A stretch of DNA of 64,000 nt from an uncultured Burkholderiales bacterium (GCA_964516875.1 CAZFAO010000002.1:57681-121680), one strand, 5' to 3'. Counted from the first letter of the stretch, positions 2,704 through 43,870 are shown. Numbers and translations: made by a program. Notes: generated by a model not told the origin, from the sequence alone.

Positions 2704-2733
2704 TTGTCCTAAATCGTACATATGCGGTAGAAT
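2704..2733 (+). promoter_or_regulatory. Housekeeping-sigma promoter for a leaderless transcript of the sigma-like gene
   Basis: TTGTCC (2704-2709), 18-nt spacer, TAGAAT (2728-2733), ATG 6 nt downstream at 2740. Confidence 0.6.
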
Positions 2734-2739
2734 GTCCAC

Positions 2740-3765: not shown

Positions 3766-4412
3766 CGGATCTCGATAATTCCTGTGCGCAATCCCATGAG
3801 AACTGCTTGTGTGCGGTCGCGTGCGTCGAGCTTGTCGTAAATCGAAGCTAAGTGATTCTTCACTGTTTTAACGGAGATGAATAAATCGCTTCCCACATCA
3901 TTGGTGCTTCGACCATCGGCAATGAGTTGCAAAATTTCTTTTTCACGCTTGGTAAGAATTCCAGTATCGGCATCGGCAACTTCGTTTGATTCGGGAGTGA
4001 TTGATGAACCTGTGTCGAGCATCTGCTTTGCAATAGACGGAGAGATGAGTTCCCCCTGCGAAACTTTTTTGACGACTTCGACAACTTCTGCCATTGGTGC
4101 ATCTTTTGTCATGAACGCTGTCGCGCCTGCATTGATTGCTTGATTGACAACAGTTGCTTCACCGTGCATGGTGAGCATCACAATGCGAGTGTCGGGTTTG
4201 TCGGCCTTCATGATTTTAAGTGCAGATAAACCATCCATCACAGGCATAGTGATATCGAGCATGACAATATCGGGGGAAAGTTCATTCACAAGACGAACGC
4301 CTTCTTCGCCATCTCCAGCTTCACCAACAACGTCATATCCATTATCGGTCAATGCACGCTTGACCGCTTGGCGGACGAGCTTGTGATCATCAACTAGAAC
4401 TACGGTGGTCAT
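3762..4412 (-). CDS. NarL/LuxR-family response regulator
   Basis: Receiver VVLVDDH...DIVMLDITMP; C-terminal LTKREKEILQLIADG...VKTVKNHLASIYDKL HTH. Confidence 0.96.
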   Translation of the reverse strand: MTTVVLVDDHKLVRQAVKRALTDNGYDVVGEAGDGEEGVRLVNELSPDIVMLDITMPVMDGLSALKIMKADKPDTRIVMLTMHGEATVVNQAINAGATAFMTKDAPMAEVVEVVKKVSQGELISPSIAKQMLDTGSSITPESNEVADADTGILTKREKEILQLIADGRSTNDVGSDLFISVKTVKNHLASIYDKLDARDRTQAVLMGLRTGIIEIR

Positions 4413-6067: not shown

Positions 6068-6130
6068 AGGTTGTTGATAGCATCGACTTAAAAATCCCAG
6101 TGGTAAAGGGCTAACGCGTAAACTTACAAC

Positions 6131-6727
6131 ATGCATAAAGTCGCAATTATTGGCCCTCTCGGCAGCGGAAAATCGGAGATAGTGCGTATTTGCTCAGAGA
6201 TGGACTTTCCCACAGTGTCCGCAGATCATGTGGCTCGGATGCTCCTTGAATTACCCGGAATCGCACACGATGATGTTGCTAGAGCATTCCCCGAAGTCGT
6301 CGATTCAGTTGGTCGTATTAACAAACATCAACTTGCCGAAGATGTTTTCCATAATCATGAACACCTTGAATTGTTGGAAAGCATCATTCATCCTCATGTA
6401 TGGCAAATTGTTGCGTCATTTTTTATGGAGTGTGAAAACAAGAACGAAGATATTTGTTTTGTCGAAGTTAGTGCGCCCGATAGTTCTATCAAAACTCGTT
6501 TTGATGAAATGTGGTGCGTAACAGCAGATATATCCGTTCGTCAGCAACGATGCATCGATCGTGGAATGACACAAGAAGATTTTGTGGCGCGCAACGAATT
6601 TCAATCCGAACATGTTGATTATGAAGACTTATCCAGTCGTACAATTATCAATGAGGGGTCAGTGGAAGAACTGACAGAGAAAATTCGCTCAATGTGTTCG
6701 GACCTAGCTGAAATACGAGGACAGTAG
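6131..6727 (+). CDS. coaE: Dephospho-CoA kinase
   Basis: [11 protein letters not shown]-loop, [15 protein letters not shown]; directly upstream of uvrB as in Actinobacteria. Confidence 0.93.
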
Positions 6728-27324: not shown

Positions 27325-28863
27325 GTGATGCAATTACGGTCTACTCTCCGTGCCCACTGGGCTCTGGCTTTGTGTATTCTCGTCGCGTCCTTGCTCACTT
27401 TTTCAGGATGTTCTATCTTGCAGGCACAAGCAGAACATGAACGACCGAATAACCTCACAGTGTGGACATCGACAGATTTAACGCATGATCCATTAGGCAG
27501 TAAATCGACAGAACAGCATTTCATTACATCGTTGGAGAACCGCTCTCTTTTTGGTCTGACTAAAAAAGGTGAGATTCAAGAAGAGCTTGCACGCAAATAT
27601 GAAGTATCGGCAGACGGACTCACGATAACAGTGACATTAAATGATGAAACGTTCTCTGACGATTCTCCCATCACATCTCAAGACGTCAAGTCAACATACA
27701 CGCGTGTGATGCAATTGGGAGGTGATTTCGCGAAGCTCTTAGAAAATATCAAGGGCTCGGGCGAAGCTAAAAATGGATCTGATTTTTTTGGTATCGCCGT
27801 TCCTGATTCGAACAGCGTTATTTTTTCCCTCATTGCTCCGGACCCATTTTTTGCCTACCACCTTGCTCATCCCGCGACAGGCATTCTTCCCAGCTCGACA
27901 ATAGGTGCGGCTGGAGCATTTACATTCGGGGCGCACTCTGGTTTATATACAGCAGAATCAATTTCAAATATTATTGATTCCAGCACAATATTTACCCCAC
28001 GAGATGAAGAACTTCCTGTAATCACGATCGTTCGAAAATCAGAAGCAGATATCGCAAAATCGCCTTCAACGACGGATGCGGATATTATTCTCGCGGCTAC
28101 AACGGATTCCGACAGATTCGAACAAATATATATTCCGGAGTTGGCAATCGCCTCGTGGAATCTCTACGTAAAAGACGCGTCATCTCCTTTGGCTGATATT
28201 CGACTTCGTCAAGCAATATTGATTGCAATGGACAACAAAGAATCAATTGCTGCATATTCAATACGTGCTTCAACTCCAAAGAAATTTACAGGAGACACAT
28301 TTGATTCAGTAGCGTGTGCTGCTAGTTGTGAAACTGACAAGGAAGCAGCGAAGAAGCTTGTCGAACAGATTTATCCAACGGGGAATGCGCCAACGCTCAC
28401 GATTGATATTGAGGACAACGCAATCCAGCAAGATCTTGCAGCATCGGCAGCAAAAAAGCTCGAGGAAATCGGCATTCCAACTACCGTGAAATCGCATGAT
28501 GCCATGGAGCTATCCAACGTGATAGCTCGTGGGGAAGTACAGCTATTCCGTTTCGGATGGATATCAGAAGTTGCCGTGGGCGGGGATCCACTTGTGCGTA
28601 GCTTCAAAGCAGACTCAACGGAAAACGTTTCAGGAGTCACCGATGCGACACTCGAAACCGATATTGCTGCTTATCAAAGTGCAACGGGTTTTCAAGACAA
28701 GTTGAAAGATTCCCAAGCGATCCAAGAGCGTATAAAGGATCTCTGGTTAACTCGTCCTGTTGCACATTTCCATAAAATTGTTACTGTCGACAAGTCCATA
28801 GAAAATCTTACTTTTGACTACTACGGGCGAGCTTCCGTGGGCGATATTCGCATTTCCTCGTAG
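27325..28863 (+). CDS. Second, divergent family 5 ABC substrate-binding lipoprotein
   Basis: Lipobox TFSGC, ELARKYEVSADGLT...FSDDSPITSQDV, LRQAILIAMD. Confidence 0.8.
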   Translation: MMQLRSTLRAHWALALCILVASLLTFSGCSILQAQAEHERPNNLTVWTSTDLTHDPLGSKSTEQHFITSLENRSLFGLTKKGEIQEELARKYEVSADGLTITVTLNDETFSDDSPITSQDVKSTYTRVMQLGGDFAKLLENIKGSGEAKNGSDFFGIAVPDSNSVIFSLIAPDPFFAYHLAHPATGILPSSTIGAAGAFTFGAHSGLYTAESISNIIDSSTIFTPRDEELPVITIVRKSEADIAKSPSTTDADIILAATTDSDRFEQIYIPELAIASWNLYVKDASSPLADIRLRQAILIAMDNKESIAAYSIRASTPKKFTGDTFDSVACAASCETDKEAAKKLVEQIYPTGNAPTLTIDIEDNAIQQDLAASAAKKLEEIGIPTTVKSHDAMELSNVIARGEVQLFRFGWISEVAVGGDPLVRSFKADSTENVSGVTDATLETDIAAYQSATGFQDKLKDSQAIQERIKDLWLTRPVAHFHKIVTVDKSIENLTFDYYGRASVGDIRISS

Positions 28864-28935
28864 TTGAACTCGACGCACACAAGCTGCTCTGAGCTAGTAT
28901 TTCTCACCGGATTCATTCGTATGAATTACATCCCA

Positions 28936-29020
28936 GTCGAAGTGGCGGAATTGGCAGACGCGCTAGTTTAAGGGACTAGTGCCTTCGGGCGTGGGGGTTC
29001 AAGTCCCCCCTTCGACACCA
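28936..29020 (+). tRNA. tRNA-Leu, anticodon AAG (type II, encoded CCA)
   Basis: GTCGAAG/CTTCGAC acceptor stem, D-loop GGAATTGGCAGAC, anticodon stem CTAGT/ACTAG with loop TT-AAG-GG, variable arm GCC-TTCG-GGC, T-arm GGGGG-TTCAAGT-CCCCC, ACCA end. Confidence 0.93.
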
Positions 29021-29150
29021 TATTTATTCAAGGGCGTCCTTGAACCCCTGGGACTGAGTTCATTCTGGTCCCCCCTTCGACACCATATTTATTCAAGGGC
29101 GTCCTTGAACCCCTGGGACTGAGTTCATTCTGGTCCCCCCTTCGACACCA
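29003..29150 (+). repeat. Perfect 65-bp tandem repeat beginning with the last 18 nt of tRNA-Leu
   Basis: GTCCCCCCTTCGACACCA at 29003, 29068 and 29133; the two 47-bp intervening segments are identical; degenerate remnant gcgtccttgaac at ~29165-29176. Confidence 0.95.
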
Positions 29151-29349
29151 ACAATTTTCTCTACGCGTCCTTGAACTCTGCTGTCCTCGCAAAAAATTCT
29201 TGCCGTATTCGTGGCAGAAGATGAATATCCAGAGCGATTAACCGCGTATTGCGCATGTCGCGAAGTGGTTATAAATGAAGTCCGCTATCTTTTTCGATAG
29301 GTCTTTCGTACTATGAAATTCGAGTTCAATTTGCGAAACGGAGTTCACA

Positions 29350-31386
29350 ATGGTCCTACACAACAAAGCTAGCCAAATACGGAAATGGGTCGCTTTAACG
29401 GGAGCCGCCATATTAGTGGTGGCATTATTTTCTTCAGCGTATGCTGCTCCTGTCACAGCTAAGGATATCTTTGTGAACGTTGGTGGTCCTGGATTTAATA
29501 CAACACCAAAAATTTTGGCTTGTACATCAACATCAAATTGTTCTGGTTACCTAACAGGTTCAGTGACCGTAACAAATAAACCAACTCTGAAAATCGCAAA
29601 CTCGAGCATCTTCAACGTGATGTATCAAACTCAGATCCAAGGAGATATGCATTTCAGTATCCCTGTTACGGGTGGAAAGTACAGCGTCCATTTAGCTTTT
29701 GCTGAAACGGATGGATTGGCCGCAGGGAATCGAGTATTTAATGTCGGGATGGAAGGCAGTAATGTTCTGTCGAATTTCGATGTTGCAGCTGCAGCTGCAG
29801 GTCCTGCTCGTGCTGTCACTCGCGAACACACACTTTATATTTCTGATGGCAAACTCAATATCGACTTTCAAGGGACCAAAGGAAAAGCAATATTAAGTGC
29901 GATTCTCGTTCAACGCGTTGGAGATCTTCCTCCGGTAACAACAGCAACATCAACTTCTACCACGACTACAACAACGACGACAACAACGACAACGACAACA
30001 CCACCACCAACTTCGAGTTGTACAGGTGTTGCAGTAAATCCTGGAGATAATATTCAATCGAAAATTGATGCAAATCCAGTCAACACAACATTTTGTTTGG
30101 CTCCAGGAACATACCGTGGACAGAGTCTGTCTCCAAAAGCAGGGGATAAGTTCATTGGAAAAGGAACGTCAGCAAGTGCAGTAGTTCTCAACGGAGCAAA
30201 CCTCATCTCAAATCCTGTCGCATCAGGTGGTTTGTACTACGCAGCGAATCAAACACAAGAGGGACATCGCTCGGGTGAATGTGCTCCTGGATACCCAGTA
30301 TGTAACCGTCCAGAAGTTTTGTATTACGACTCACGACCACTTATTGGTGTCGATGCACTTTCGAAAGTTACAACAGGCAAGTTCTTCTTCGACTATGCCG
30401 CTGATCGTGTCTACTTTGCAGATAACCCAACAGGACACACTGTTGAAATCGGTGCAACATTGCGTGCCTTTAACCGAGGTGCAGCAAATGTCACAATCAA
30501 CAACTTGACTGTAGAAAAGTATGCAAATACTGGTCAACAAGGAACTATTGAAACCGATACCAATTGGGTTATCGATAATGTCACAATTCAGCTCAACGGT
30601 GGACAAGGAATCACGATGTTTGGTGCCGGTCCTACATTGAAAAATTCTCGTGTGCTTCGCAATGGACAAATTGGTGTCGGAGCAAACGGAAATGTTGATG
30701 GAAACAGTGACTATGGCCATGCTGTCAACGCTGTGTTTGTCGATCGAACCGAAATTGCTTACAACAACAGCAACAATTACGAAATGGGCTGGGAGGCAGG
30801 AGGCACCAAGTTCTGGAGCACAAAGAACAGTGTGCTTTCGAACAACTGGGTTCACCATAACAATGGGCCAGGGTTGTGGGCTGACGGCTTTAACGAAAAC
30901 ACAACATACTCTGGCAACTTGATAGAAGACAACGTTCAAAACGGAATCTTCCACGAAATTAGTGGTAGTGCAAAAATCCTTGACAATAAAATCTATCGAA
31001 ATGGATGGGTCAACGGAAAGCAACAAGATGGAAGCAACGCTATCCAAACATGTTGGACTGCTATCTGTATCTCGTCAGGTAAGAATGTTGAGATTGCACG
31101 CAATGATGTGAAAGATAACGGACGCGGCCTCGTCATCGTTGACGATCCACATTATCCAGATCCCACATACGGATTGAACGTGCACGACAACACATTCACA
31201 AACAATGGCGATCAAGCGGTTGCGATGTCGATTCCAGCGTATCAAGCTATCGGCGGAAAAGTGACCAACTTCACGTTTGATAAAAACCGCTATTCGACAG
31301 GATCATTGTTTGGATTTTTAGGTGCAGCACGGGACTGGTCAGAATGGCGCGGCTCCGGATTTGATCCGAACGGAACAATGGGCTGA
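29350..31386 (+). CDS. Secreted malectin-like domain + Thr-rich linker + right-handed parallel beta-helix protein
   Basis: Signal peptide ending AYA; YSVHLAFAE...RVFNV...FDV...KLNIDF (malectin); beta-helix repeats NVTIQLNGGQGI, NWVHHNNGPGLW, NLIEDNVQNGI. Confidence 0.85.
   Translation: MVLHNKASQIRKWVALTGAAILVVALFSSAYAAPVTAKDIFVNVGGPGFNTTPKILACTSTSNCSGYLTGSVTVTNKPTLKIANSSIFNVMYQTQIQGDMHFSIPVTGGKYSVHLAFAETDGLAAGNRVFNVGMEGSNVLSNFDVAAAAAGPARAVTREHTLYISDGKLNIDFQGTKGKAILSAILVQRVGDLPPVTTATSTSTTTTTTTTTTTTTTPPPTSSCTGVAVNPGDNIQSKIDANPVNTTFCLAPGTYRGQSLSPKAGDKFIGKGTSASAVVLNGANLISNPVASGGLYYAANQTQEGHRSGECAPGYPVCNRPEVLYYDSRPLIGVDALSKVTTGKFFFDYAADRVYFADNPTGHTVEIGATLRAFNRGAANVTINNLTVEKYANTGQQGTIETDTNWVIDNVTIQLNGGQGITMFGAGPTLKNSRVLRNGQIGVGANGNVDGNSDYGHAVNAVFVDRTEIAYNNSNNYEMGWEAGGTKFWSTKNSVLSNNWVHHNNGPGLWADGFNENTTYSGNLIEDNVQNGIFHEISGSAKILDNKIYRNGWVNGKQQDGSNAIQTCWTAICISSGKNVEIARNDVKDNGRGLVIVDDPHYPDPTYGLNVHDNTFTNNGDQAVAMSIPAYQAIGGKVTNFTFDKNRYSTGSLFGFLGAARDWSEWRGSGFDPNGTMG
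29938..30015 (+). repeat. ACN-rich low-complexity tract encoding a Thr/Pro linker
   Basis: TTATSTSTTTTTTTTTTTTTTPPPTS. Confidence 0.9.
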
Positions 31387-31597
31387 GAAACCTAAGTCTG
31401 CAGGGATGTGGATGTGTGCTCTGGGACTCCGCAGCTACATTCTTGCAAATTCTTTACGATTGATGAATCCTGTATCGTGCTGAGCTGAGCCTCGCATTCA
31501 TTCCTATATTTCCACTTTTCACAAGATTTGAACATTTCGCAGGTTCTGGGTAACCTCATGGGATAGCGCATAATAACGTCGATCTCAGGGGTGTGAT

Positions 31598-32398
31598 ATG
31601 GAAAATGCAAAAGTGGAATATGTGGCTTTGCAGAAGAAATTACAAGATCTTGATAAATCGATTGGAACGTTAAAAAAGGAACTCGATCAACAACACGCGG
31701 ATTTATCTAATCCGCTCGGCCATAAGCTATTGAGCAAAAACAACATTACGTTATATGAGTTGTATATAGAAACGCCTCATGGCAACAGCGATATCAGCGG
31801 TGTGACGGCATCTGTTGAAGATGCGACATCATCACAGTTAACAGAAGCACGAGTATTGGCAGCAGGAATATATGATCTGGCGGCAAAGAAGAATACTGGT
31901 GAGGTTTATCTCCTGATTGATTCCCCCGACTTTTCTTCCCTGACTGAATTTGGACCGAAAGATCGCAGTCAAGCAATGGACTTAGCGAATCAAATCAATA
32001 ATGCGGGGAAACAATCAGCGGCCATTCTTGCGCAACGCACATCTGAACTTGATGAAGTAAATGAAAAGTTGCAACAGTTTCAAAAAAACGAGCATCCTTT
32101 GCAAAAGGAGCGAATCGAACTTATTCCTCAGGTTGAGAAGGCAAAAATTGCGAATGATGAACAGATAGTAGAACAAGAAAAACAAAGACAAGCCGTTCTT
32201 GCGATTCGCGCGAAGGAAAAAGAAGACGCTCGGATAAACCGACAAAAGGATCTGGATGCACGAGTTTTGCGCGTCCTCGAACAAGCCTACAAAAAATCAT
32301 ACGACAAGCAAATGAAAAAGCAATCGAAAAAGCAAGTAGAGCAAGTAGAAACTACTGCTCCGTCTGAGGCTGAAGCTGAAGCCGAGAAAGTTCATTAG
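31598..32398 (+). CDS. Hypothetical coiled-coil protein with central PH-like domain
   Basis: SD AGGGG; N- and C-terminal heptad-rich helices around ITLYELYIETP...GEVYLLIDSPDF...AMDLANQINNA. Confidence 0.7.
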   Translation: MENAKVEYVALQKKLQDLDKSIGTLKKELDQQHADLSNPLGHKLLSKNNITLYELYIETPHGNSDISGVTASVEDATSSQLTEARVLAAGIYDLAAKKNTGEVYLLIDSPDFSSLTEFGPKDRSQAMDLANQINNAGKQSAAILAQRTSELDEVNEKLQQFQKNEHPLQKERIELIPQVEKAKIANDEQIVEQEKQRQAVLAIRAKEKEDARINRQKDLDARVLRVLEQAYKKSYDKQMKKQSKKQVEQVETTAPSEAEAEAEKVH

Positions 32399-32406
32399 GA
32401 GGAGCC

Positions 32407-33621
32407 ATGACTGAAGAGAACAATGAACCTCTTGTTCCAGAAGAAGTCCGAAACACTCTCGAGGCACAAGTGCAGTTAATGAGCACGAGAGAAAAATACT
32501 GGGTCCTGTATAAAAAAAATATTATGCGTGCTGTTGCTGCGGTCGTCGTGCTTCTTGTCGGAATGGGCGCTCTTGCTGCATTGTCAGCATATTCGGATAG
32601 CCAAGCACGGAAAGAAGCTGCGCGGAAAGAGGCTGCGCGACTTGCTCAAGATCGAGAAGAGCGACGAGTACAGAGAATCAAGGGCGATATTGAAGAGTAT
32701 GTAGAAGATACATGTTATGAACAATCAGGAATAGCGATACCTGTACCGACACAAAAAGAAATTCGAGCAAAAATTTCGCTTGAATCTGAATGGAAAAAAT
32801 TCACGTCTAAAGAAACTCTCTCAAAAGACCTTGTCACATGTATTCAAGAAGAAAATCGTAAGTTGGTAGAGGTTTATCCAGGAGAAATTGCAAATACTAT
32901 TCAGGAGTTCTGTGGCCTATATGGCGCGGCGGATGCTACTTTGACATCCCAGAATGTTCATATGAACTGGACAGTTCAATGGGAGAAGATCAAGCCAGAA
33001 GAAACTGCAATAGCAGAAGTTCTCGCTTGCGTGGTTCCTGTTCAGACAGACCGTTTCCAGAATGTATATTTACCAGAAGCTAACGCTGAGGTCGCGCGCG
33101 CGTGCGAAGAGAATGCAACAAGTGAATTAACCGCTGTTACTGCGGCGAGTGAAATCAGTTACTCTTCTAAATGGGATAAAGTCACAACAAAAGATCAGTT
33201 GGTGCAACAACTTGTTGATTGTGTAGCGGGGAAGAAGGCCGCTGCGCGTGCTGCGAGGCTCTCTTCATGTACGGAAAACTTTACTGTTGATCAAATTGTA
33301 AAAGACCCCGATGGAGTGACAGGACAGTGTTTTGTACTCCATGTCAATATCTCGCAGTTTGATTCGGCAACAGGAACCTGTGCTTTTCGAGGTGATTTCG
33401 ATAGAGTACCCCACACGTACAGCTATCAATATTCCGAAAACAGTATGTATGAAGCTGAAAATTCATATGATTGTCCGGAGCTCGCTGGGGTCGATAATGC
33501 TGATTTTGTAAAAATCTGGGCTGAATCGCTTGGCTCGTATTCCTATAGTACGACCATTGGTGGAACGGCCACTGTCCCGAAATTCGAAATACTTCAGATT
33601 GAGGTCGAGAGAAAAGGATGA
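32407..33621 (+). CDS. Membrane-anchored protein with three ~64-aa Cys/Trp repeats and a C-terminal OB-fold-like domain
   Basis: SD GGAGG; TM at aa ~41-61; C..W-x15-C repeats; C-terminus DQIVKDPD...VKIWAESLGSYSYSTTIGGTATVPKF. Confidence 0.75.
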   Translation: MTEENNEPLVPEEVRNTLEAQVQLMSTREKYWVLYKKNIMRAVAAVVVLLVGMGALAALSAYSDSQARKEAARKEAARLAQDREERRVQRIKGDIEEYVEDTCYEQSGIAIPVPTQKEIRAKISLESEWKKFTSKETLSKDLVTCIQEENRKLVEVYPGEIANTIQEFCGLYGAADATLTSQNVHMNWTVQWEKIKPEETAIAEVLACVVPVQTDRFQNVYLPEANAEVARACEENATSELTAVTAASEISYSSKWDKVTTKDQLVQQLVDCVAGKKAAARAARLSSCTENFTVDQIVKDPDGVTGQCFVLHVNISQFDSATGTCAFRGDFDRVPHTYSYQYSENSMYEAENSYDCPELAGVDNADFVKIWAESLGSYSYSTTIGGTATVPKFEILQIEVERKG

Positions 33622-33675
33622 TTGGGTTAGTGCAGGCTCTGCACTCGCACTACATGAGCGTTTAGTGCTGGTGAG

Positions 33676-34317
33676 TTAGCAACCGCTCGGAACGACGCCC
33701 GAGTTCACAGCAGCGGATGAAAACACAAAGCTGGCATGGGGAGACGAGGCATTTCCACCATTCCATGAGACTTCAAGTGCTATCCATCCCGTGAAATCTG
33801 GTGTCATATTCACTGTGAACGTATAGGGTGACACAACATCCGTTGTGGAACCATCACTGGCAAAAGTTGCAGTGCCACTCTGGTTGGTGGGAGTTCCGTC
33901 CCAGCGCACCCACGTCCATGTTGCTGTTCCAGACTTGTTTGCAGTGACTGCTCCTGAAAATGTATAGGTATCGCTCACGCATTGAACGATCTGTTCATTC
34001 GTTTTGCTTGCCGTTGCTGATGCGATAAATGCAACAGACGCAGTCGTTGAATCGCTTGTAGTTGCTTTCGGTGTTGTTTTTAATGTTGCAGGGATTGATG
34101 TCGTTGTTGATGACGATTCAGTTGAAGGAACCGCATCTGCTGCTGCAACTTTTCCGATTTCAGGTTTGGTTGTTGTGGGAGAAACGCTATGGGATTTTTT
34201 TGCTACGGGATCACTCGATGGCCACAACAATGCAACAAGCAAAAGGAGCGGCACAATAAGAATTACAGCAAGTATTGCAACAAGTGTTTTCGTGTCTTTT
34301 TTCACAGCGATAGCCAT
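33676..34317 (-). CDS. Membrane-anchored protein with Ser/Thr/Pro linker and beta-rich (Ig-like) C-terminal domain
   Basis: TM LVAILAVILIVPLLLLVALLW, S/T-rich stalk, YTFSGAVTANKSGTATWTWVR...GWIALEV. Confidence 0.7.
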   Translation of the reverse strand: MAIAVKKDTKTLVAILAVILIVPLLLLVALLWPSSDPVAKKSHSVSPTTTKPEIGKVAAADAVPSTESSSTTTSIPATLKTTPKATTSDSTTASVAFIASATASKTNEQIVQCVSDTYTFSGAVTANKSGTATWTWVRWDGTPTNQSGTATFASDGSTTDVVSPYTFTVNMTPDFTGWIALEVSWNGGNASSPHASFVFSSAAVNSGVVPSGC

Positions 34318-34474
34318 GACTGTATTTCGACCGTTCAGATCATCTCTTGAGGCCAAGTTGACCCCTTCAGAGTCGCAAATGTCCTGGATTTCATGCCTGC
34401 GAGCCCAGAAAGTAAGCAAACAGAACAATTCATCATTAACTAGTGTGTGGTGAGCAATTGTCTATGCTGTTGAG

Positions 34475-35167
34475 ATGACGCTCAAAAATAAACGCACAGC
34501 TCTTCGTGAAAAACTCTCCAGAATTTACCAGAAGCCTTATGTTTTCATTACGGCCAAAGTGGCTGGGATCCTCATTGCCGTTGTAGGAATTGTCATCTGC
34601 CTGGGGATGATTATTGGTACCTATGCACTTCATTCAACAACAAAAAAGCACACCAAAACAATCGAAACAACAATCTATAAATACCTCGACAAAGGTGATG
34701 ATGGTTTAGACACGATTCAAGAAAAAGTCGATAGCCTCACGCCCGCCACAGATATTGTGCAAGAAGTCTCTGATATTACGGGTGAAAATATCGATCGTTT
34801 GGAAACATTGAAGCTTTCACTTATTGCATTTAATTTTGGTAATAAATTCGATACACCAATTGAGCGAATAGAGGACACGATCGAGGCGCTCAAAAAATTT
34901 AAAGAATTGCCTGAATTAATTCTAGAGTCAAAAGAAAAAGTTCACGACAAGATTGAAGAGCTAAAAGACAAAATCGATGAGACTCGAACGCAAGTGAGCG
35001 ATGGTGGCAAGCAAGTTCGACGCATTACTTTTTACACCTTCCTCGTGTCTTTTCTTCTTGCGACAATTTTCTTTGTCGGCGAATACTCCCTTCTGACGCG
35101 TTGTATTCCTGCTCTTCGCAATTATCGTCGAAAACGTAAAGACAATTACCGATCGGTAAGTAAATAG
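34475..35167 (+). CDS. Two-TM protein with extracytoplasmic coiled coil
   Basis: TM near each terminus, heptad-rich middle; TATGCT hexamer 6 nt before the ATG. Confidence 0.7.
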   Translation: MTLKNKRTALREKLSRIYQKPYVFITAKVAGILIAVVGIVICLGMIIGTYALHSTTKKHTKTIETTIYKYLDKGDDGLDTIQEKVDSLTPATDIVQEVSDITGENIDRLETLKLSLIAFNFGNKFDTPIERIEDTIEALKKFKELPELILESKEKVHDKIEELKDKIDETRTQVSDGGKQVRRITFYTFLVSFLLATIFFVGEYSLLTRCIPALRNYRRKRKDNYRSVSK

Positions 35168-35262
35168 CGGCATTCGTGCTTACTTTTGTGTCTCTCACCT
35201 GGTGCGTAGCTGGGAGATTCGGTTGCTAACATGACGGATATATTAAATTAGAAGGGGTTGTC

Positions 35263-35925
35263 ATGTATGAAATAGTTGTCGCATTCTTTGCGATGTGTAT
35301 CGGGGCAGTTTTCTGCTTTTGGGGATTTAAAGCAATGCGCATTTTATTTCCATTGTGGGGTTTAATTGCAGGGTACTGGCTCGGTGCTGAGCTTATCCAC
35401 GCAATCACCGGCGATGGATTCTTTGGCACGACCCTCGCTGTTGTCGTTGGTATTTGTACTGCAATATTGGGTGCAATCCTTGCGTACTTCTATTACGCCG
35501 CATCAATTATCTTGTTTATGGGTATGGTCGGATACTGGCTCGGAGCAGGTTTTATTACCTTGTTCGGATTCCACGTTGGTGTCATCTCAACTTTGGTAGG
35601 GCTCGCAATTGGTGCGCTCTTCATCATTGTTGCATTTATTGGTAACGCACCGAAAGTATTTTTGCTCTTTATTACTGCATTCGGTGGAGCAGCACTTATG
35701 GTTGCTGGCGCCCTTGTCCTTATTAACCGTGCATCGTTGGAAGACCTCGAGCAAGGTTCATTCGCTGTTGCATTCGATCATGGATGGTTCTGGCAACTTG
35801 CTGTTCTTGGATTGGGTTTCATTGGATACGCTGCTCAACTTGCAGCATCACACGATGAAGAAGTGAAGTGGTCACAAGAGTGGGCCCAAATGACAGGTGC
35901 CAATGCACAGACGAAAGGCGCATAA
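35263..35925 (+). CDS. DUF4203/TMEM198-like multi-pass membrane protein
   Basis: IGAVFCFWGFKAMRILFPLWGLIAG; Gly-rich TM helices; TAFGGA. Confidence 0.8.
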   Translation: MYEIVVAFFAMCIGAVFCFWGFKAMRILFPLWGLIAGYWLGAELIHAITGDGFFGTTLAVVVGICTAILGAILAYFYYAASIILFMGMVGYWLGAGFITLFGFHVGVISTLVGLAIGALFIIVAFIGNAPKVFLLFITAFGGAALMVAGALVLINRASLEDLEQGSFAVAFDHGWFWQLAVLGLGFIGYAAQLAASHDEEVKWSQEWAQMTGANAQTKGA

Positions 35926-35927
35926 TC

Positions 35928-36518
35928 ATGAAACTGAACGATACAGTTAACCTCAAGTCTATCGATAGCCTTGAGCTCGATAAAGATTCACAACGTGACT
36001 ACTGGGTCCTTCTTCTCTTGAAGGGTATTTCCATGGTCGTCTTTGGTTTCCTTGCGGTCATTTGGCCAGGGGTGACCATTGTCACACTTGCATTTATGTT
36101 CGCGGTTTACCTGTTGGCAGTCGGCGCCGTCGACATCATTAACGGATTCCGTTCGGTCAGTTCAAAGAATCTCTGGTTCTTGAAGATTGTATTAGGAGTT
36201 GTTGAAGTTGGGCTTGGTCTTTGGTTGTTAAACGAAGGACTTGCCGTGACAACAATTGTGTTCTTGCAAGCCATTGGCCTGTTGCTGATCTTTCAATCAA
36301 TTATTGAAATTATTAGTGCTTTTAAAAGTGATACATCGGGTGGAATTAAAACACTGATGGTGATTTCAGGAATTCTTTGGTACATCATCGGAATTTGGCT
36401 CATTCGCTACCCAGTTCGTGGCGGACTTGGGTTCGTATGGTTACTTGGATTTTATGGAATCGTTGGAGGGGCAATTTTAATTGCAGGGTCCTTTAGCGTC
36501 CGTCCATCTAAAGCTTAA
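35928..36518 (+). CDS. HdeD/DUF308 family membrane protein
   Basis: LLLKGISMVVFGFLAVIWPG...FAVYLLAVG, twice-repeated TM pattern. Confidence 0.85.
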   Translation: MKLNDTVNLKSIDSLELDKDSQRDYWVLLLLKGISMVVFGFLAVIWPGVTIVTLAFMFAVYLLAVGAVDIINGFRSVSSKNLWFLKIVLGVVEVGLGLWLLNEGLAVTTIVFLQAIGLLLIFQSIIEIISAFKSDTSGGIKTLMVISGILWYIIGIWLIRYPVRGGLGFVWLLGFYGIVGGAILIAGSFSVRPSKA

Positions 36519-36520
36519 TT

Positions 36521-37129
36521 TTGGCCGATAGCTTGATTGGCAAAGTTAAGGAATTCATAATATTTGCACCGCGGGGGGCGCTGAGTCTTGTACGAGACAC
36601 AGCGCCCGCTGTGATTGCGCTCCTCGTGTCGCGTGGCAAACTCGACGAGGCTCAAAGTTCTCACCATGCACCCGGTAGCCCTGTAAATCCTGATGAGGAC
36701 AAGTCGCTTGTCAAAAAACGTATGGATGCGTATACGAGTGATATTCAAAAAAGCAAAAATATGTTATTTAATGCTTTGGGTTCTGTCCAAATAGTGAAAA
36801 ATAATCTTCCCATGGTTCAGTCTTTGACAAATGCAAAAGGCAAGCAAGTAGCGCAAGAAAATATTGCTACCGTTAAGAAAAATTTCTTCCAAAAAGTTGG
36901 AGACAAAATTAAAAATCCCGTTATTGAAGAACCACCACCACCCGTTGAGATCGTTCCTCCGGAAGACAATCTTGTGCGCAGTGTCGTGAAGACCGGTGTA
37001 CAAACAGCACAGACAGCAAGCAGTGTCACACTGGGCGTTGCACGTTCTGGCGTATCAGCACTGAAGAGCATTGTGAGTACTTCATCTGAAGCAAGTCCTT
37101 GTGGTGACGACGAAATATCTGGCGTCTAG
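36521..37129 (+). CDS. Hypothetical protein (start uncertain)
   Basis: 202-codon ORF filling the gap between two genes; TTG start without clear SD; no recognised motif. Confidence 0.45.
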   Translation: MADSLIGKVKEFIIFAPRGALSLVRDTAPAVIALLVSRGKLDEAQSSHHAPGSPVNPDEDKSLVKKRMDAYTSDIQKSKNMLFNALGSVQIVKNNLPMVQSLTNAKGKQVAQENIATVKKNFFQKVGDKIKNPVIEEPPPPVEIVPPEDNLVRSVVKTGVQTAQTASSVTLGVARSGVSALKSIVSTSSEASPCGDDEISGV

Positions 37130-37173
37130 ATCCATTCTTTCCGCAACCGCTTGTGGCACTGTAAGCTACATTC

Positions 37174-37530
37174 ATGCCACTGATTCGTATTGATTACAAT
37201 GACAACCTTTTTACCGAGAAGTCCTATGAAGACTTCACGAAATACCTCTTAGAAGAATCCATGCGGATCTTTAATACTGATGCCGATCATATTTCTGTAT
37301 TTTCAACACCTTATGGTCCGTATGATTTATCTACATCGATTGCCGAAATTGAGTATCGTGCGGGCAAGGGCGAATTCGAAGACGACAAATTATCGCCAGA
37401 AGAAAAACAAGCCGATTTTCTTGCACAATTAAGTGCTGCGGTGCGGGCGTATAAAAGTGAAAACGAAATCAACTATCCAATCATTCTTACGCTGACGATT
37501 GAAAACTGGAAATTTGATTGGATTGCGTAG
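37174..37530 (+). CDS. Tautomerase/MIF-fold-like small protein
   Basis: N-terminal Met-Pro (MPLIRIDY), 118 aa beta-alpha-beta pattern; TAAGCT hexamer 6 nt before the ATG. Confidence 0.55.
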   Translation: MPLIRIDYNDNLFTEKSYEDFTKYLLEESMRIFNTDADHISVFSTPYGPYDLSTSIAEIEYRAGKGEFEDDKLSPEEKQADFLAQLSAAVRAYKSENEINYPIILTLTIENWKFDWIA

Positions 37531-37548: not shown

Positions 37549-38628
37549 GTGCTCGGCGAAACAAGAAATATAGATCTGAGCTGTTCACCTGCTTTTTCTG
37601 AAAAAATACGCGCGCATTCTTTGAATGCAGGCGCTGATCTGGTAAGCATCACAACAGCTGAGCCTTTTGCTGACATTGCACAAATCCTGCTTGAACGCAA
37701 AGCTCTAGGTTATGCCGGTTCAATGCAATTTACGTATCGCAATCCTGAGCGCTCGACGGATGTTTCGCAATCGCTCGAGGGTGCACAATCACTTGTTGTA
37801 TGTGCAGTGTCGTATGCTCATGAAAAAAGTGAAGTCCCTGATAATCCCTACGCCCGAGTTGCGAGTTATACAACATCGCAAGCACGAGATCGATTAGACA
37901 ATGCACTAAAAAGCATTTCGCTCTTTCTGCGTAATGCTGGTTGGAAAACAAAAATTTTGGTGGATGATAACGGTCTTGTCGATCGTGCAGCGGCTATGCG
38001 CGCCGGAATTGGATTCTACGGAAAAAATGCACTCATCATCACACAAGAATATGGCAGCACTGTTTTGCTGGGATCCGTTGCGACAACAGCGCCTCTTCAT
38101 TGTGATGCGCATCATCAATTAGAAGATTCAACCAGTGGATGCGGAACGTGCACTCAGTGCATACCTGCGTGTCCAACAGGGGCCATTGAGAGACCGGGAA
38201 TTATTAATGCGTCGAAATGTCTCAGTTGGATTGCACAATCACCCGATGACATTTCGCACGAACATCGCATTGCCATGGGAAACAGGATTTACGGATGTGA
38301 TGAGTGCCAAGATGCGTGTCCATATAATAAAATTCAGCAACGTCGTACATCAACAGATGCGCTGTTTCCACAAACACTCGATCTTGATTTTCTCTTGTCG
38401 TGCACCGACGCTGAGCTCTTGCAAACGGCTGGAGAGTGGTATGTCTATGACCGTGATCCTCGGTATCTCCGACGTAATGTGTTGATCATCGCGGGAAACA
38501 TACTTCCCGATGCAAGCCCTTCGTGGGAAGATGTTCGTGCGTTTTCTGTCAGCGACGATGAATTTATTGCGCAATATGCTCTGTGGGCGTTGGATCAACG
38601 TGCCACACGCAAACGCTCTGCGAATTAG
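37549..38628 (+). CDS. queG: Epoxyqueuosine reductase QueG
   Basis: RVASY, VDRAAAMRAGIGFYGKN, CGTCTQCIPACPTGA, CLSW, GCDECQDACP. Confidence 0.92.
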   Translation: MLGETRNIDLSCSPAFSEKIRAHSLNAGADLVSITTAEPFADIAQILLERKALGYAGSMQFTYRNPERSTDVSQSLEGAQSLVVCAVSYAHEKSEVPDNPYARVASYTTSQARDRLDNALKSISLFLRNAGWKTKILVDDNGLVDRAAAMRAGIGFYGKNALIITQEYGSTVLLGSVATTAPLHCDAHHQLEDSTSGCGTCTQCIPACPTGAIERPGIINASKCLSWIAQSPDDISHEHRIAMGNRIYGCDECQDACPYNKIQQRRTSTDALFPQTLDLDFLLSCTDAELLQTAGEWYVYDRDPRYLRRNVLIIAGNILPDASPSWEDVRAFSVSDDEFIAQYALWALDQRATRKRSAN

Positions 38629-38637
38629 AATCTTTGC

Positions 38638-39585
38638 GTGCCTGTTGTCATTTCGTCTCACCATGAATCTCTCTATGATCGTTTATTGTCGTCGGGTGCT
38701 CTTGTGCTGCGAGAAGCTGATGCACTGACACAAGACATTCGACCGGCGCGTATAGGTTTACTTAATCTCATGCCTGCACCGGCGATGGAATCAACAGAGA
38801 ACCAGTGGCTGCGCTATATCAGTAATACTGTTTTACAAGTAGAGCCTGTCCTTCTTAAGTTTGATGATGACCCTCGCGATTATGAAGGTTCAACGCGACG
38901 AGAAATACTCAAAAATTATTTGGCATTTTCCGAAGGGGCAAAGGATGGTCTTGATGCTTTGATTGTCACGGGAGACAATCTTGAGCTGCGAAAAGAGCAA
39001 ACAGACACACATGTTGGCTTACCCTTCGAAGAGATTCGTTATGGTGATGAATTAAAGAAAATCATCGATTGGGCGCGAACAAATGTGTTTTCAACTATTT
39101 ATTCGTGCCTCGCTGCCCATTTTGCGCTCAACCATCTCTACGGAATTGAACGTCACATTGCAGATCATAAAGTTTTTGGTATCTTTGAGCACGAAGTGAG
39201 CAAATATACACGTAGTCCTATTACTTTGGGAATGGATGACGTCCTCAGCGCACCACATTCTCGCTGGGGCTACATGAAGTCACGTGATTTAAAAGACGCC
39301 GGCGTTCAAGTTTTGGCTGAGCACGGTGAAAATGGTTGGCTGCTTGCGACAGATCACAATAACAATGGTGGACTCGATCTCTTTGTGCAAGGTCATCCTG
39401 AATACGATAAATACGATCTCCACAGTGAATTCAAACGCGACTGGGAAAGTGGTCAACGCATGCCCTTGGATTATTACGATTCGAATAATCCAGCTTCGCT
39501 TCCTCGTATGACATGGGCGAATGATGCACGTGCATTGCATGCGAACTGGATGTCGATGTTATATAAGCACTTTTCAGGCTTGTAA
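38638..39585 (+). CDS. metA: Homoserine O-acyltransferase, MetA (HTS) family, probably acetyltransferase
   Basis: IGLLNLMP, IVTGDNLE, catalytic SCLAA, PHSRW, GHPEYD. Confidence 0.88.
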   Translation: MPVVISSHHESLYDRLLSSGALVLREADALTQDIRPARIGLLNLMPAPAMESTENQWLRYISNTVLQVEPVLLKFDDDPRDYEGSTRREILKNYLAFSEGAKDGLDALIVTGDNLELRKEQTDTHVGLPFEEIRYGDELKKIIDWARTNVFSTIYSCLAAHFALNHLYGIERHIADHKVFGIFEHEVSKYTRSPITLGMDDVLSAPHSRWGYMKSRDLKDAGVQVLAEHGENGWLLATDHNNNGGLDLFVQGHPEYDKYDLHSEFKRDWESGQRMPLDYYDSNNPASLPRMTWANDARALHANWMSMLYKHFSGL

Positions 39586-40020
39586 AGAATCTTCTGCTTT
39601 TTTTTGGCTTCTTTTTTTACGCACTTCTCTCACTATTCCGTACGTGGCGACAGATGTTGTAAAAGTGAGAAGCGTTCCATAGATGATATATATTTTTGGC
39701 GTCAATGACTCTGTTGCAATGAGTACGTAGATGTCTGGCGCGAAAAAAAGAGCAAGTGTCAATGATCCAAAAATATAAAAACGAGACTTGTTGCGATCAA
39801 CGATTGCAAGGACAAGTTTCAGTGAACACAGGGCATAGGGGATAGAGAGCGATATCTCAAATAAGAAATACCAGACTCCATTCACGCCATATTTCGATAG
39901 AGTCTCTGAAATTATGAATGCACGTATTGCATCATAGATAATGACTCCCAATACCCAAAACTTTGTGAGCACCTTGCGACGCGCGGGTGTTAGGTGGTGC
40001 TGTAATCTCGTGCGTGTCAT
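39574..40020 (-). CDS. Hypothetical four-TM membrane protein
   Basis: Four hydrophobic segments and a basic C-terminal tail; start trimmed to ATG 40020. Confidence 0.65.
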   Translation of the reverse strand: MTRTRLQHHLTPARRKVLTKFWVLGVIIYDAIRAFIISETLSKYGVNGVWYFLFEISLSIPYALCSLKLVLAIVDRNKSRFYIFGSLTLALFFAPDIYVLIATESLTPKIYIIYGTLLTFTTSVATYGIVREVRKKRSQKKAEDSLQA

Positions 40021-40042
40021 CTCGCCCGCTAGCATAGAGGAG

Positions 40043-40795
40043 ATGAATAACGATTTAGAACCAGGCGTGGGCTGTTCCGAGGATATTCCTCTTTCGCGAC
40101 GTCTGTGGGCAGCATGGAGCATCCATTCATTTACTGCCTGTGGTGTCTTGTGTGCTCTCTTTGGAATCGTTGCAATTGCTAATGGTCACGCGGCGTCAGC
40201 GCTGTTGTGGTTGCTTGTTGCTCAGATTATTGATGGGGTGGATGGTCCCCTCGCGCGGGGTGCAGAAGTCAGTAAGTATTGTCCGAATATTGACGGTCAC
40301 TCCTTGGATCTCATTATCGACTATTTGACGTGCGTTGTTGTACCTGTCATTTTTATGTTGAAGTTTGACATGTTTCCCGCTCACATCGAACTCGCAATAG
40401 CGGGTTTGATACTTTTCACATCGGTTCTCTGGTTCGCGCGAAAAGACATTGAAACAAAAGATGATTGGTTCAGAGGATTTCCTACGGGGTGGAATCTGAT
40501 TGCAACGTCATTGTGGTTATTGGATTTTTCTCCAGCGATCAACGCAGTGGTTTCGTGTGTATTTATTGCGTTGACACTGTCAAACGTTAAGTTCTTCCAT
40601 ATCCTTCGTTCGCCGCAATATAAAACGTTGACGATAACTTTGACAACTTTCTATTTGCTTGTTATGACATTCATGATTTTTTCGGACGCTGACCACCATA
40701 ATGAATTTGGAAAAGTCGTGATCATCGCGTGGTTGATGTATTACCTCGGTATGGCTGTCTGGCGAACTCGTCAAGGCGACGAGCTCCCTTTATGA
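40043..40795 (+). CDS. pcs: CDP-alcohol phosphatidyltransferase, phosphatidylcholine synthase (Pcs)-like
   Basis: WSIHSFTACG, IIDGVDGPLAR...DGHSLDLIIDYLT, FRGFPTGWN; SD GAGGAG before ATG 40043. Confidence 0.78.
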   Translation: MNNDLEPGVGCSEDIPLSRRLWAAWSIHSFTACGVLCALFGIVAIANGHAASALLWLLVAQIIDGVDGPLARGAEVSKYCPNIDGHSLDLIIDYLTCVVVPVIFMLKFDMFPAHIELAIAGLILFTSVLWFARKDIETKDDWFRGFPTGWNLIATSLWLLDFSPAINAVVSCVFIALTLSNVKFFHILRSPQYKTLTITLTTFYLLVMTFMIFSDADHHNEFGKVVIIAWLMYYLGMAVWRTRQGDELPL

Positions 40796-40828
40796 AGGTC
40801 TGTCCTTCCTTTTAGGATAAAACGGACA

Positions 40829-42316
40829 TTAGGCTTCGGGGCGAAGAGTGGGGAAGAGAATCACGTCGCGGACGGTTTGAGTTTCTGCCAAAAGCATCAC
40901 GAGTCGATCGATTCCAATGCCGAGACCGCCCGTTGGGGGTAAGCCGTACTCGAGGGCTCGAATATATTCTTCGTCGATGGTTCCCGCTTCGTCATCGCCT
41001 GCATCGCGTGACGCTTGTTCGTGTTCAAAACGCTTGCGCTGTTCAATAGGATCGTTCAATTCAGAGAAAGCATTTCCGAGTTCTCGTCCTCCCACAACAA
41101 GTTCGAATCGCTCCACAAGAAATGGATCGTCTCGATGGGTTTTAGCTAACGGTGAAATCTCTTCGGGGTAATCAATCACAAAGGTGGGTTGGATGAGATC
41201 TTTTTCACAATGTTCGTCGTAGAGCTCACCGATGATTTTTCCGACACCCCAGTAGTCCTTCACGTCGAGGCCGTGTTTCTTAGCGATGAGAACAGCATCA
41301 GCTCGATCCATAGACGGATGCATCTCTTCGCCGATGCATTCCTTGATGAGATCGATCATGCTGACGCGGCGATATGGCGCTGCGAGTGAAATCTTGTTTT
41401 CACCAAATTCAATATCAGTGCGACCAATGGAAGCCATTGCGGCTTTGCTCACAATTTCTTCGGTGAGTTCCATCATTGTGTTGTAGTCAGCTAACGCTTC
41501 GTAACATTCCATCATTGTAAATTCTGGATTATGACGAGTTGAGATTCCCTCATTACGGAAAACACGACCAATTTCAAAAACGCGATCAATTCCACCAACA
41601 ATAAGACGCTTCAGGTGAAGTTCAAGCGCAATACGCATAAACAAATCCATATCGAGTGTGTTGTGATGCGTCAAAAATGGGCGAGCAGTTGCACCACCGG
41701 GTTGCGTATGCAGGACAGGGCCTTCGACCTCGACATATCCGCGATCAACGAGTGTTTTACGCACGCTGGCAATCGCGCTGTGGCGAATATCGAAACGTCG
41801 TCGAGATTCTTCGTTCATGACAAGATCGAGTTCTCGTTGACGGAAAATCTGATCGACGTCTGTCATCCCTTTGAACTTGTCGGGAAGGGGACGCAAGCAC
41901 TTAGAAAGTAAAGTCACTGAAGTTGTTTTAATGGAGAGCTCACCTTTTTTCGTAGTGAAAACTTCACCAGTGGCACTCACCCAATCACCAAGGTCGAGAT
42001 CGACGAATGCTGCAAAATCATCACCGAGATCAGCCTGTGAAACAAAAAGTTGAATCGATCCAGAGGAATCGCGAAGCGTCGCGAAGGACAATTTGCCCAT
42101 GTCGCGTTTAAGAACAATACGCCCAGCAACACTGTGAGTCACACCCGTGTGCTGCTCCGCTCCTAAATGTCCATACTCCGTCTGAAGATCGCCTGCGTAT
42201 GCGGTCCGTTCTCCCGTGACGGGGTAGGGATTGACCGACTTAGATTTAAGGTCATCGATTTTGTTGAGACGTAGTTGGCGTATATCAGAATCGGATGACG
42301 TCGCGGTTGGTTCCAT
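40829..42316 (-). CDS. lysS: Lysyl-tRNA synthetase class II
   Basis: [53 protein letters not shown]. Confidence 0.99.
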
Positions 42317-42382
42317 CTGAATATGTTAGTTCTTTCGTGTAGGCTTAATTCGTACTTTAGCGGGCCTGGGGAGGAAACCACA

Positions 42383-43870
42383 GTGGCATATTTGGACGAT
42401 TATCTGAAGCAATTTGTTTCGCAAGACGTTATTTCACAACTCAGTAAAGAAACAGTTTCTTTTGCGAGTGCGCTTGATGTTGTTGGTCAAACCTCTCCCG
42501 AAATTGCCGATGCAATTGCACAAGAACTTCGCGATCAACGTGCATCGCTCAAACTCATTGCATCTGAAAATTATGCTGATGTTGAAACGCTTCTTGCGAT
42601 GGGGAACTGGCTCACAGATAAGTACGCCGAAGGTTCGGTCGGCCACCGTTTTTATGCAGGATGTCAAAACGTTGACACAGTCGAGCGCATTGCATCTGAA
42701 AAAGCTTGCGAACTCTTCGGTGCTGAAAATGCTTACGTTCAACCTCACTCGGGAATCGATGCCAACTTAGTTGCATATTGGGCAATACTTGCCGCCAAAG
42801 TCGAAGCACCAGCAGTACAAGCAGCAAATGTTAAAAGCATCTACGAAATGCAAGAAGCAGATTGGGAAGCGCTGCGTCATGCGTTCGGCAACCAGCGAAT
42901 CCTCGGCCTTTCTCTCGATGCTGGCGGACACCTCACTCACGGTTTCCGTCCGAATATTTCTGGAAAAATGTTCGAGCACTTTTCCTATGGCGTTGATTCC
43001 GAAACTGGACTGATTGATTACGACGCGATGCGCAAGCAAGCTCACGAAGTGAAACCACTTATTTTGGTGGGTGGGTACAGTGCATATCCTCGCAAAGTTA
43101 ATTTCCGCATCATGCGAGAAATTGCTGATGAAGTCGGCGCGGTATTCATGGTTGACATGGCACACTTCGCGGGTCTTGTTGCAGGAAAAGTTTTCACAGG
43201 TGATTTCAATCCTGTGTTATTTGCCGATGTTGTGACAACAACAACACATAAAACTCTTCGCGGTCCTCGTGGCGGAATGGTGTTGTGTAAAGACTGGATG
43301 AACGAGTTCGTTCTTCGCGGATGTCCGCTTGTTCTTGGTGGTCCGCTCGGACACATGATGGCAGCCAAAGCAGTTGCGTTCGATAAAGCACTCGAACCTG
43401 TATTCCAAGAATATTCGCAACAGGTTGTCAAGAACGCTGCGGCTCTCGCAGATGAGCTCATGCGCTGCGGAGGAAAACTTACCAGCGACGGAACGGACAA
43501 TCACCTCATGGTTCTTGACTGTACAAGCTACGGCATTAATGGCCGTCAAGCTGACGCTGCACTATTGGAATCAGGCATTGTGACGAATCGCAATACTATT
43601 CCGAACGACCCTAACGGCGCTTGGTACACATCGGGTGTGCGCATTGGTACGCCAGCGCTCACGACGCGAGGGATGAAGGAAGACGACTTCCGCGAAGTGG
43701 CACGACTCATCGATGAGGTCTTGCGTGCGACGCAACCCGCGACGGGAGCTGACGGGAAAGCTTCGAAGGTCAAGTATGTTCTTGATTCTGATTTTGCGGA
43801 GAAAATCCGTACCCAGATTGGTGAATTGCTGAGCCGTTTCCCGCTTTATCCAGGAATAGAAATTCAGTAA
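42383..43870 (+). CDS. glyA: Serine hydroxymethyltransferase (long type)
   Basis: [15 protein letters not shown]-like [37 protein letters not shown]; GTG 42383 after GAGGAAA. Confidence 0.98.

Follow-up and report, generated by a model that had tools for sequence, protein, structure and literature searches.

Repeats that re-create the 3′ end of a tRNA gene have been known for a long time from the Escherichia coli tyrT locus, a parallel that had already been drawn in the first-pass annotation of the present DNA. We checked this precedent, and repeats with tRNA 3′ sequence are indeed present downstream of tyrT/tyrV, as an array of 3.1 copies directly behind the tRNA, with a period of 178 nt and 95% matches, in which each unit starts with the final 19 nt of tRNA-Tyr, CCA included. 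To our knowledge, the origin of the tyrT repeat has never been settled. Among mobile elements, tRNA remnants that serve as att sites have been described along with elements that carry three att repeats (PMC3218068), and remnants or tandem elements have been found at tRNA sites in Oenococcus (PMC8074189). An identity block that starts in the T-stem region represents the commonest attP class in Islander (PMC4383910).

The locus described here is found in the window, i.e. the whole stretch of 64,000 nt that was analysed, whose host is an uncultured Acidimicrobiia-like bacterium from a wastewater or sludge setting. ARAGORN detected a single tRNA gene in the window, which encodes a tRNA-Leu with anticodon AAG and includes the CCA end (28936–29020, + strand; Rfam RF00005, 50.8 bits). 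The final gene of an operon for an Opp/Dpp-type ABC transporter ends 73 nt before it, and the gene of a secreted malectin/beta-helix protein follows ~330 nt downstream. The best relatives of the binding protein encoded upstream of the tRNA, with 52–60% identity, come from metagenome-assembled genomes (MAGs) named Acidimicrobiia; a comparison of the same protein with genome contigs yielded no relative, and an exact look-up of its ORF, which has a GTG start, yielded nothing. The tRNA-Leu(AAG) gene is the intact target gene, i.e. the attB-bearing tDNA, and the array behind it can quite plausibly be read as stacked att cores at a tRNA-Leu integration hotspot.

The earlier claim that the last 18 nt of the tRNA, including CCA, recur at a 65-bp period was confirmed, with exact copies at 29003, 29068 and 29133. 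This core, GTCCCCCCTTCGACACCA, occurs exactly three times in the 64-kb window, always on the + strand, against an expectation of zero from 100 shuffles. Copy 1 (29003–29020) is part of the tRNA and spans from G59 of the T-loop, through the 3′ strands of the T-stem and the acceptor and the discriminator base, to CCA, with the final two T-loop bases included. Copies 2 (29068–29085) and 3 (29133–29150) are exact 18-mers on the + strand without a tRNA body. TRF assigned to 29003–29150 a period of 65 nt, 2.3 copies, 100% matches and no indels, and the whole array, of 148 nt, has a length of 2.28 periods, so that its ancestor already had the form core–47 nt–core. The identity of the intervening 47-nt segments, U1 (29021–29067, +) and U2 (29086–29132, +), likewise stood, with 100% matches and 0 indels by TRF. 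The left neighbour of copy 2 is TTCTG and its counterpart in the tRNA is TTCAA, and the repeated block grows to 23 nt if two mismatches are allowed (TTCAAGTCC... versus TTCTGGTCC...). Copy 3 adjoins the flank that leads towards the next gene (29151–29260, +), in which the 12-mer GCGTCCTTGAAC at 29165–29176 is the sole overlap with the spacer. The degenerate spacer fragment reported near this position is therefore real: the 12-mer recurs shifted by one base with respect to the spacer register, the 5′ arm of the palindrome described below is absent, and 0 of 5000 shuffles gave an equally good match. The cores are identical at 18 of 18 positions but the 26 nt following core 3 share only the 12-mer with the spacer, and thus the repeats have sharp edges, as site-specific joints do.

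Within the spacer, the palindrome TTCAAGG-GCGT-CCTTGAA (29027–29044 in U1) overlaps an inverted T-arm-like copy at 29030–29048, in which AAGGGCGTCCTTGAACCCC matches the T-arm region, given as its reverse complement AAGGGGGGACTTGAACCCC, at 16 of 19 positions, a similarity equalled by 0 of 5000 shuffles. The T-arm of the tRNA and its acceptor junction (28994–29012) are 84% complementary to spacer positions 29030–29048, and also to 29095–29113, and the resulting imperfect 19-bp hairpin could compete with the T-arm in precursor RNA or single-stranded DNA. Both the palindrome and the GGGAC...GTCCC stem are present in the predicted fold. The latter had been described as a loose mimic of a T-arm; the stem itself holds, but its direct likeness to the tRNA or its T-arm was not significant (397 of 5000 shuffles), and neither was the similarity between the spacer and the tRNA body.

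Tandem repeat counts can be wrong in short-read MAG assemblies, and the array might represent a single unit that was collapsed or expanded by the assembler. Logan contigs with 0 mismatches were used to check the junctions across metagenome runs. The unit–core–unit junction was crossed by pieces from three further runs of sludge or wastewater, X1 (29056–29097), X5 (29003–29097) and X18 (29056–29150), which belong to two studies. The X1 piece has 42 nt and a depth of 6, close to that of its flanks (6.1–8.5). The X5 and X18 pieces, from a study separate from that of X1 and dated 2025, have 95 nt each, which equals 65 + 30 and would be the length that a 65-nt cycle yields in a k = 31 graph. Such a junction requires at least two units, so that the array is not an assembly artefact, and an array of 148 nt fits inside one read. 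The k-mer depth of the shared part in X1, at 9.4, is less than twice the flank depth and would suit a single unit, and we nonetheless consider an assembler error extremely improbable. At depths of 3–9×, ratios are too noisy for finer unit counts; X2 and X4 contained the flanks at 2–4× depth and were uninformative on the array, and the window organism was absent from runs X21, X25, X26 and X27.

The nearest relative found (GCA_964391505.1, contig CAYMMG010000001.1, loci L120 and L054) has in common with the window the gene order cofD–gap–pgk–tpi–secG–SBP–oppBCDF–SBP–tRNA-Leu(AAG), and its tRNA-Leu (L120 11601–11685) is 100% identical to that of the window. An element follows directly behind this tRNA (L120 11686–21533 plus L054 1–4665), and the comparison with this relative covers the upstream side and the element. 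The insert, of 12.0 kb, is bounded by the tRNA end and by a tRNA-less AATA/GTTCAAGTCCCCCCTTCGACACCA, with the distal joint, ...CTTGTAATA/GTTCAAGTCCCCCCTTCGACACCA, located ~12.0 kb from the tRNA end. It encodes an integrase of 386 aa (Phage_integrase, 1.8e-21; Arm-DNA-bind_4; SAM_3), an excisionase-type HTH_17 protein and a REP_ORF2-G2P replication protein. Also encoded are an MmeI/Type ISP-like restriction-modification enzyme of 1049 aa and an ApeA_NTD1 protein; the cargo is thus made up of defence genes. The flank past the attR of this insert contains single arm-type-like sites (TCTACCATT at +46 and TCAACCA at +85) and in this respect resembles a leftover arm of some earlier element.

A second relative, represented by Logan contigs L128–L131, has the downstream side in common with the window. 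In L128, queG, two hypothetical genes, an aminoacyl-tRNA synthetase gene and the SHMT gene match window positions 37594–43626, the tRNA has the same 3′ core as the window tRNA, and the order is tRNA–element–attR–CorA–queG. The element, of 5.4 kb, is situated between the tRNA and AATA/GTTCAAGTCCCCCCTTCGACAC in L128, L129 and L130, the joint of L128 reading ...CGTAATA/GTTCAAGTCCCCCCTTCGACAC. It has the same layout as the 12.0-kb element, and its integrase is 63% identical to that of the nearest relative, both integrases being Pfam-confirmed. The repeat that flanks the elements in the relatives is a 24-nt block made up of GTTCAA and the core. In one arm of the elements of the nearest relative, L128 and L041, the last being a locus that covers one element arm, paired 11-nt repeats, such as TGTCTACCATT twice or TTTCAACCATT with CTTCAACCATT, precede the core by ~140 nt. 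The former two also have paired repeats in the other arm, 49 nt after ...TTCGACAC. Paired repeats in both arms are the arrangement expected of heterobivalent integrases with arm-binding domains. To judge from these junctions, the last 18–24 nt of the tRNA would be the crossover and identity block for tyrosine-integrase elements in close relatives.

Further observations concern the surroundings of this core. In L128 (reverse complement, 5443–5520), a degenerate core, GTCCCTTCTTCGACAC, is found 44 nt past the attR core, and short-spaced second cores at the locus are seen in different species, with unrelated spacers. Five related Logan runs (L123–L127) contain an element with an integrase 62% identical to that of the nearest relative, together with genes for a ResIII helicase and an N6_N4 methyltransferase, which are restriction-modification-like. 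This element adjoins a different tRNA, with the same T-arm and another acceptor end (GTCCCCCCTCGGGCAC).

Comparison of the queG side of L128 with the upstream side of the nearest relative identifies the interval between tRNA-Leu and queG as a variable slot. Its contents are 8 kb of surface and membrane genes in the window, the 5.4-kb element plus CorA in L128, and the 12-kb element in the nearest relative. In the window, this interval (29350–37530, +) contains secreted and membrane protein genes without an integrase, and it is given here as context only. The block has no counterpart in L128, where only CorA is present. It was considered as a bounded island and rejected, given that the window contains no distal att copy or integrase. 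Specifically, a decayed distal core was sought in the window at a tolerance of up to 6 mismatches over 24 nt and not found, and tblastn with the integrase of the nearest relative detected no integrase in the 64 kb (best E = 0.03).

Runs X3 and X23 contain the window organism at ~2.5–3.4× depth, with 0-mismatch pieces at 27682–27854, 29598–29932, 30192–30371 and 30900–31000, and both bear directly on this site. An X3 contig of 258 nt comprises 65 nt of other sequence, ending in ...TCCATTGATATTGAACTGGCAATAGTTCAA, followed by core, U and core. Its joint reads ...TCCATTGATATTGAACTGGCAATA + GTTCAA + core + U + core + flank to 29260, and the contig matches window positions 29068–29260 with 0 mismatches, preceded by an element-type arm. 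In an X23 contig of 249 nt, 160 nt of other sequence, ending in ...GCGGGATCCATTGATATTGAACTGGCAATA, precede window positions 28997–29085, again with 0 mismatches. The joint of both contigs, ...AATA/GTTCAAG, is the one found at the right ends of the elements in the nearest relative, L128 and L054, so that some strains carry that element family at the site. Taken at the level of these joints, the same tRNA block appears to be used in the window species too, and the right end of the strain-borne element abuts core–U–core. The arm seen in X3 and X23 was found neither in the window nor in loci L120–L132. One unit follows the element in X3 and at least two are present in element-free strains; at this low coverage, the difference may reflect a variable unit number or, alternatively, insertion of the element into an internal core. 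The X23 contig was also considered as proof that the spacer is borne by the element, which was rejected because X23 contains the window chromosome at ~3× depth.

The core was then surveyed in other genomes. An 18-mer scan with one genome per species gave at least 119 loci with 123 core copies. Among the matches listed, 97 of the 123 copies are inside tRNA-Leu genes (80 with anticodon GAG, 16 with AAG and one with CAG), about 20 are tRNA-less copies in other Actinomycetota genomes, and the 24-nt block of GTTCAA plus core, starting at G53/T54, is present in seven tRNA-less copies. Integrase genes adjoin the core in L066, L032 and L071. In L020, tRNA-Leu(GAG) and a displaced copy of the 24-nt core enclose a 6.3-kb island (829–7203) that encodes a TIR-domain protein and an AAA_30 protein; a domain search of its ORFs found no integrase, and it is likely a defence island. 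Its element-side flank is homologous to the native terminator hairpin but has diverged from it, the changes being compensatory, and the native hairpin itself is located past the displaced copy. The sharp-edged identity pattern of the window is also seen on this island of 6.3 kb.

Short arrays were likewise found at this tRNA end in other genomes. L065 has three cores (476–633) and L047 two (4884–4971), both with a period of 70 nt and both behind tRNA-Leu(GAG), in contigs labelled 'uncultured Bifidobacterium sp.', and a further short array, in L050, has 179 nt. The displaced copy of L050 has a single-base difference to the tRNA resident there and therefore derives from a foreign att site. The arrays of L065, L047, L050 and L128 resemble that of the window in having an identical or nearly identical tRNA-Leu 3′ end, repeated directly at short spacing without the tRNA body, whereas the spacer sequences are unrelated. 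Spacers in the four independent arrays of L047, L065, L128 and the window have 40, 40, 44 and 47 nt, respectively. Unlike in the window, the unit of L047 and L065 consists of the entire T-arm, the acceptor end and CCA (30–32 nt) followed by 16–29 nt of native flank.

The survey also provided a side view of the decoding of leucine codons and of the labelling of these genomes. The A34 anticodon AAG was found in 16 of the 97 tRNA-Leu genes with the same 3′ end in other genomes, among the matches listed (L008, L013, L044, L062, L073, L080, L081, L084, L091, L094, L098, L105, L107, L108, L111 and L116), and also in L120. All 16 AAG genomes have a GC content of 40–54% and the high-GC relatives compared carry GAG, again among the matches listed, a distribution that suggests that low-GC Acidimicrobiia-like bacteria have switched, as a lineage, to decoding with A34 (presumably inosine). 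L054, L120 and many of the L0xx loci include several contigs that look like Acidimicrobiia or Actinomycetota by gene content and tRNA, and such contigs titled 'uncultured Burkholderiales bacterium' or 'uncultured Bifidobacterium sp.' are probably mislabelled MAGs.

With moderate confidence, we favour the reading that the array is what remains of a site-specific recombination event, its one unit having later been amplified to two. Three exact 18-mers of the tRNA 3′ end are present in the same orientation (+), the identity block starts at a canonical sublocation, G59 of the T-loop, and the core bounds integrase elements elsewhere, namely the 12-kb and 5.4-kb elements of the relatives and the arm junctions of X3 and X23. 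Between tRNA and fragment, however, only 47 nt are found in place of an integrase and element DNA, a length that falls far short of any element. The first-pass annotation had proposed att-site copies arising from integrase activity, and this part gains support from tyrosine-integrase elements flanked by the same core in both relatives, from the about 20 tRNA-less copies elsewhere (among the matches listed), and from the arm–core–unit–core joints of X3 and X23. Its wording, 'scars of repeated integration/excision', needs correcting since an integrase that excises precisely leaves a single core behind, without a scar; in addition, two identical units fit one recent unequal exchange better than two separate integrations. 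For the same reason, the 47-nt spacer needs an extra, unobserved event. An earlier recombination would have put a second core, without a tRNA body, at a distance of 47 nt behind the tRNA (core–U–core). In this event, an element may have integrated and then lost almost its entire interior, or the recombination may have involved a second core-like site. Subsequently, a single unequal exchange between cores, by replication slippage or by integrase-mediated exchange between sister chromosomes, would have converted one unit into two identical ones, and such a recent single event would explain the 100% identity. The tRNA would have stayed intact throughout, the spacer hairpin would now occupy the position of a tRNA-proximal trailer or terminator hairpin, and the extra cores would be potential secondary integration sites.

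This relic reading has to be weighed against a plain local tandem duplication that spanned the tRNA 3′ end by replication slippage, template switching or end-joining with filler, unrelated to mobile elements and with the cores as passengers. The units follow each other head to tail with 100% identity, an inverted T-arm-like copy is found beside the direct copies, as could arise if the template were switched at a palindrome, and the window has no integrase. Moreover, the 70-nt arrays of L047 and L065 repeat native flank together with the core, and the 18-mer scan has an ascertainment bias, as it detects only duplications that contain the tRNA end. Against a recombination relic, besides the lack of an integrase and of a distal core in the window, spacings of 40–47 nt in four arrays are not predicted by random interior deletion, and a plain local duplication accounts at least equally well for the repeated flank of 16–29 nt in L047 and L065. 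Nor did the spacer show significant similarity to the element arms or post-attR flanks of the nearest relative and L128; scans of viral contigs gave 0 matches to the 18-mer, to the spacer and to the element arm seen in X3 and X23, as did scans of JGI metagenomes for the spacer and the tRNA anticodon arm. Nevertheless, a single duplication of native sequence would put the same flank past every core, and the flank of core 3 shares the 12-mer only. Duplication must also start from an ancestor that was already core–47 nt–core (2.28 units), the left identity edge falls in the T-loop, as in real att sites, and integration at this locus has been shown to be active in the species and its relatives. 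On balance, we regard a duplication unrelated to mobile elements as possible but rather unlikely. We assign a lower probability still, and deem it decidedly unlikely, that the array is a functional multi-site landing pad, possibly a by-product specific to an integrase family. Elements would then use the tRNA-less cores to enter and leave without touching the tRNA, and integrase exchange would alter the unit number. Hints in this direction are the one unit after the element arm in X3 versus at least two in element-free strains, the second core located 49 nt after ...TTCGACAC, which equals the offset of the paired arm sites in the P′ arms of the nearest relative and L128, and the similar spacings of 40–47 nt in independent lineages.

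An RNA function, in which the read-through trailer of tRNA-Leu would be processed into ~65-nt CCA-ended RNAs similar to rtT, as the first-pass annotation had proposed for its second alternative, or in which the hairpin would be a selected terminator or processing signal, appears very unlikely. In its favour, the tyrT/tyrV operon of E. coli is built in the same way, and a stable RNA, RttR, is produced from the repeat there; like rtT, the window has a tandem repeat behind a tRNA with units that start with the tRNA 3′ end including CCA. Each unit contains a perfect 7-bp palindrome 6 nt past CCA, and the array is stable across samples from 2019–2025. However, one unit folds no better than shuffles (z = −1.1), and the z-score of two units is higher only through self-pairing of the repeat. 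Scans detected no U-tract terminator within the array and no + strand promoter; the hairpin is present but is followed by CCCC, and an intrinsic terminator was not found in the array. The spacer is not conserved in the nearest relative, which has an identical tRNA, or in L128, which has the same 3′ core. RNase P and RNase Z substrates need the 5′ acceptor strand, which the cores lack, and this argues against RNA processing. Homology to rtT was found neither by sequence nor with Rfam, as the E-value scan of 28000–30000 matched the tRNA alone. The search of RNA runs returned only matches with a share of 0.06, corresponding to conserved tRNA parts of other organisms, and none of these runs contained the window organism. 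The small ORFs over the array (47 aa on the + strand and 54 aa on the − strand) are chance-sized and unsupported.

Under the favoured reading as an amplified recombination relic, the array itself is probably neutral, with a small chance that it is a usable multi-core landing pad. Its position marks tRNA-Leu(AAG)–queG as an active integration hotspot in low-GC uncultured Acidimicrobiia from activated sludge. A 24-nt att core and arm-type repeats are now available for a family of small int–xis–rep elements with restriction-modification cargo, and these may be used for delimiting islands in MAGs and for choosing integrase/att pairs as genetic tools in a group without any.

Known systems that come close include displaced tDNA fragments, i.e. 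the attL/attR direct repeats left by tyrosine-integrase islands, prophages and actinomycete integrative elements, which share with the window the sequence, the orientation and the edge in the T-loop or T-stem (Islander, PMC4383910; PMC9897764; AICEs, PMC3218068), as well as integrase elements at the orthologous site in relatives and a site that is polymorphic between strains. They differ in that each island has one fragment, whereas the window has three cores with a strict period and identical 47-nt spacers, and in that an element with an integrase is placed between the copies, both of which the window lacks. Multi-att arrays such as Frankia Fean6303, tandem AICEs, or a prophage with a remnant (PMC3218068, PMC8074189) have several cores at one tRNA, tRNA remnants usable as att sites and an unstable copy number, but kilobases separate their cores, compared with 47 nt in the window. 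The tyrT/tyrV repeats of E. coli, which are the closest formal analogue but belong to a host of a different phylum, have their identity edge in the T-loop at position 58, and those of the window at 59. Their unit has 178 nt with 95% identity, versus 65 nt and 100% here, and they are transcribed into RttR and hold the annotated tpr ORF, versus only chance-sized ORFs in the window. The common T-loop edge suggests, by analogy, that the E. coli repeats may also be att-derived. Displaced tRNA 3′ fragments, tandem islands and remnants at tRNA sites are thus well documented, and the window array represents a compact case in a new lineage, whose periodic form provides a second, independent instance of the old tyrT repeat puzzle.
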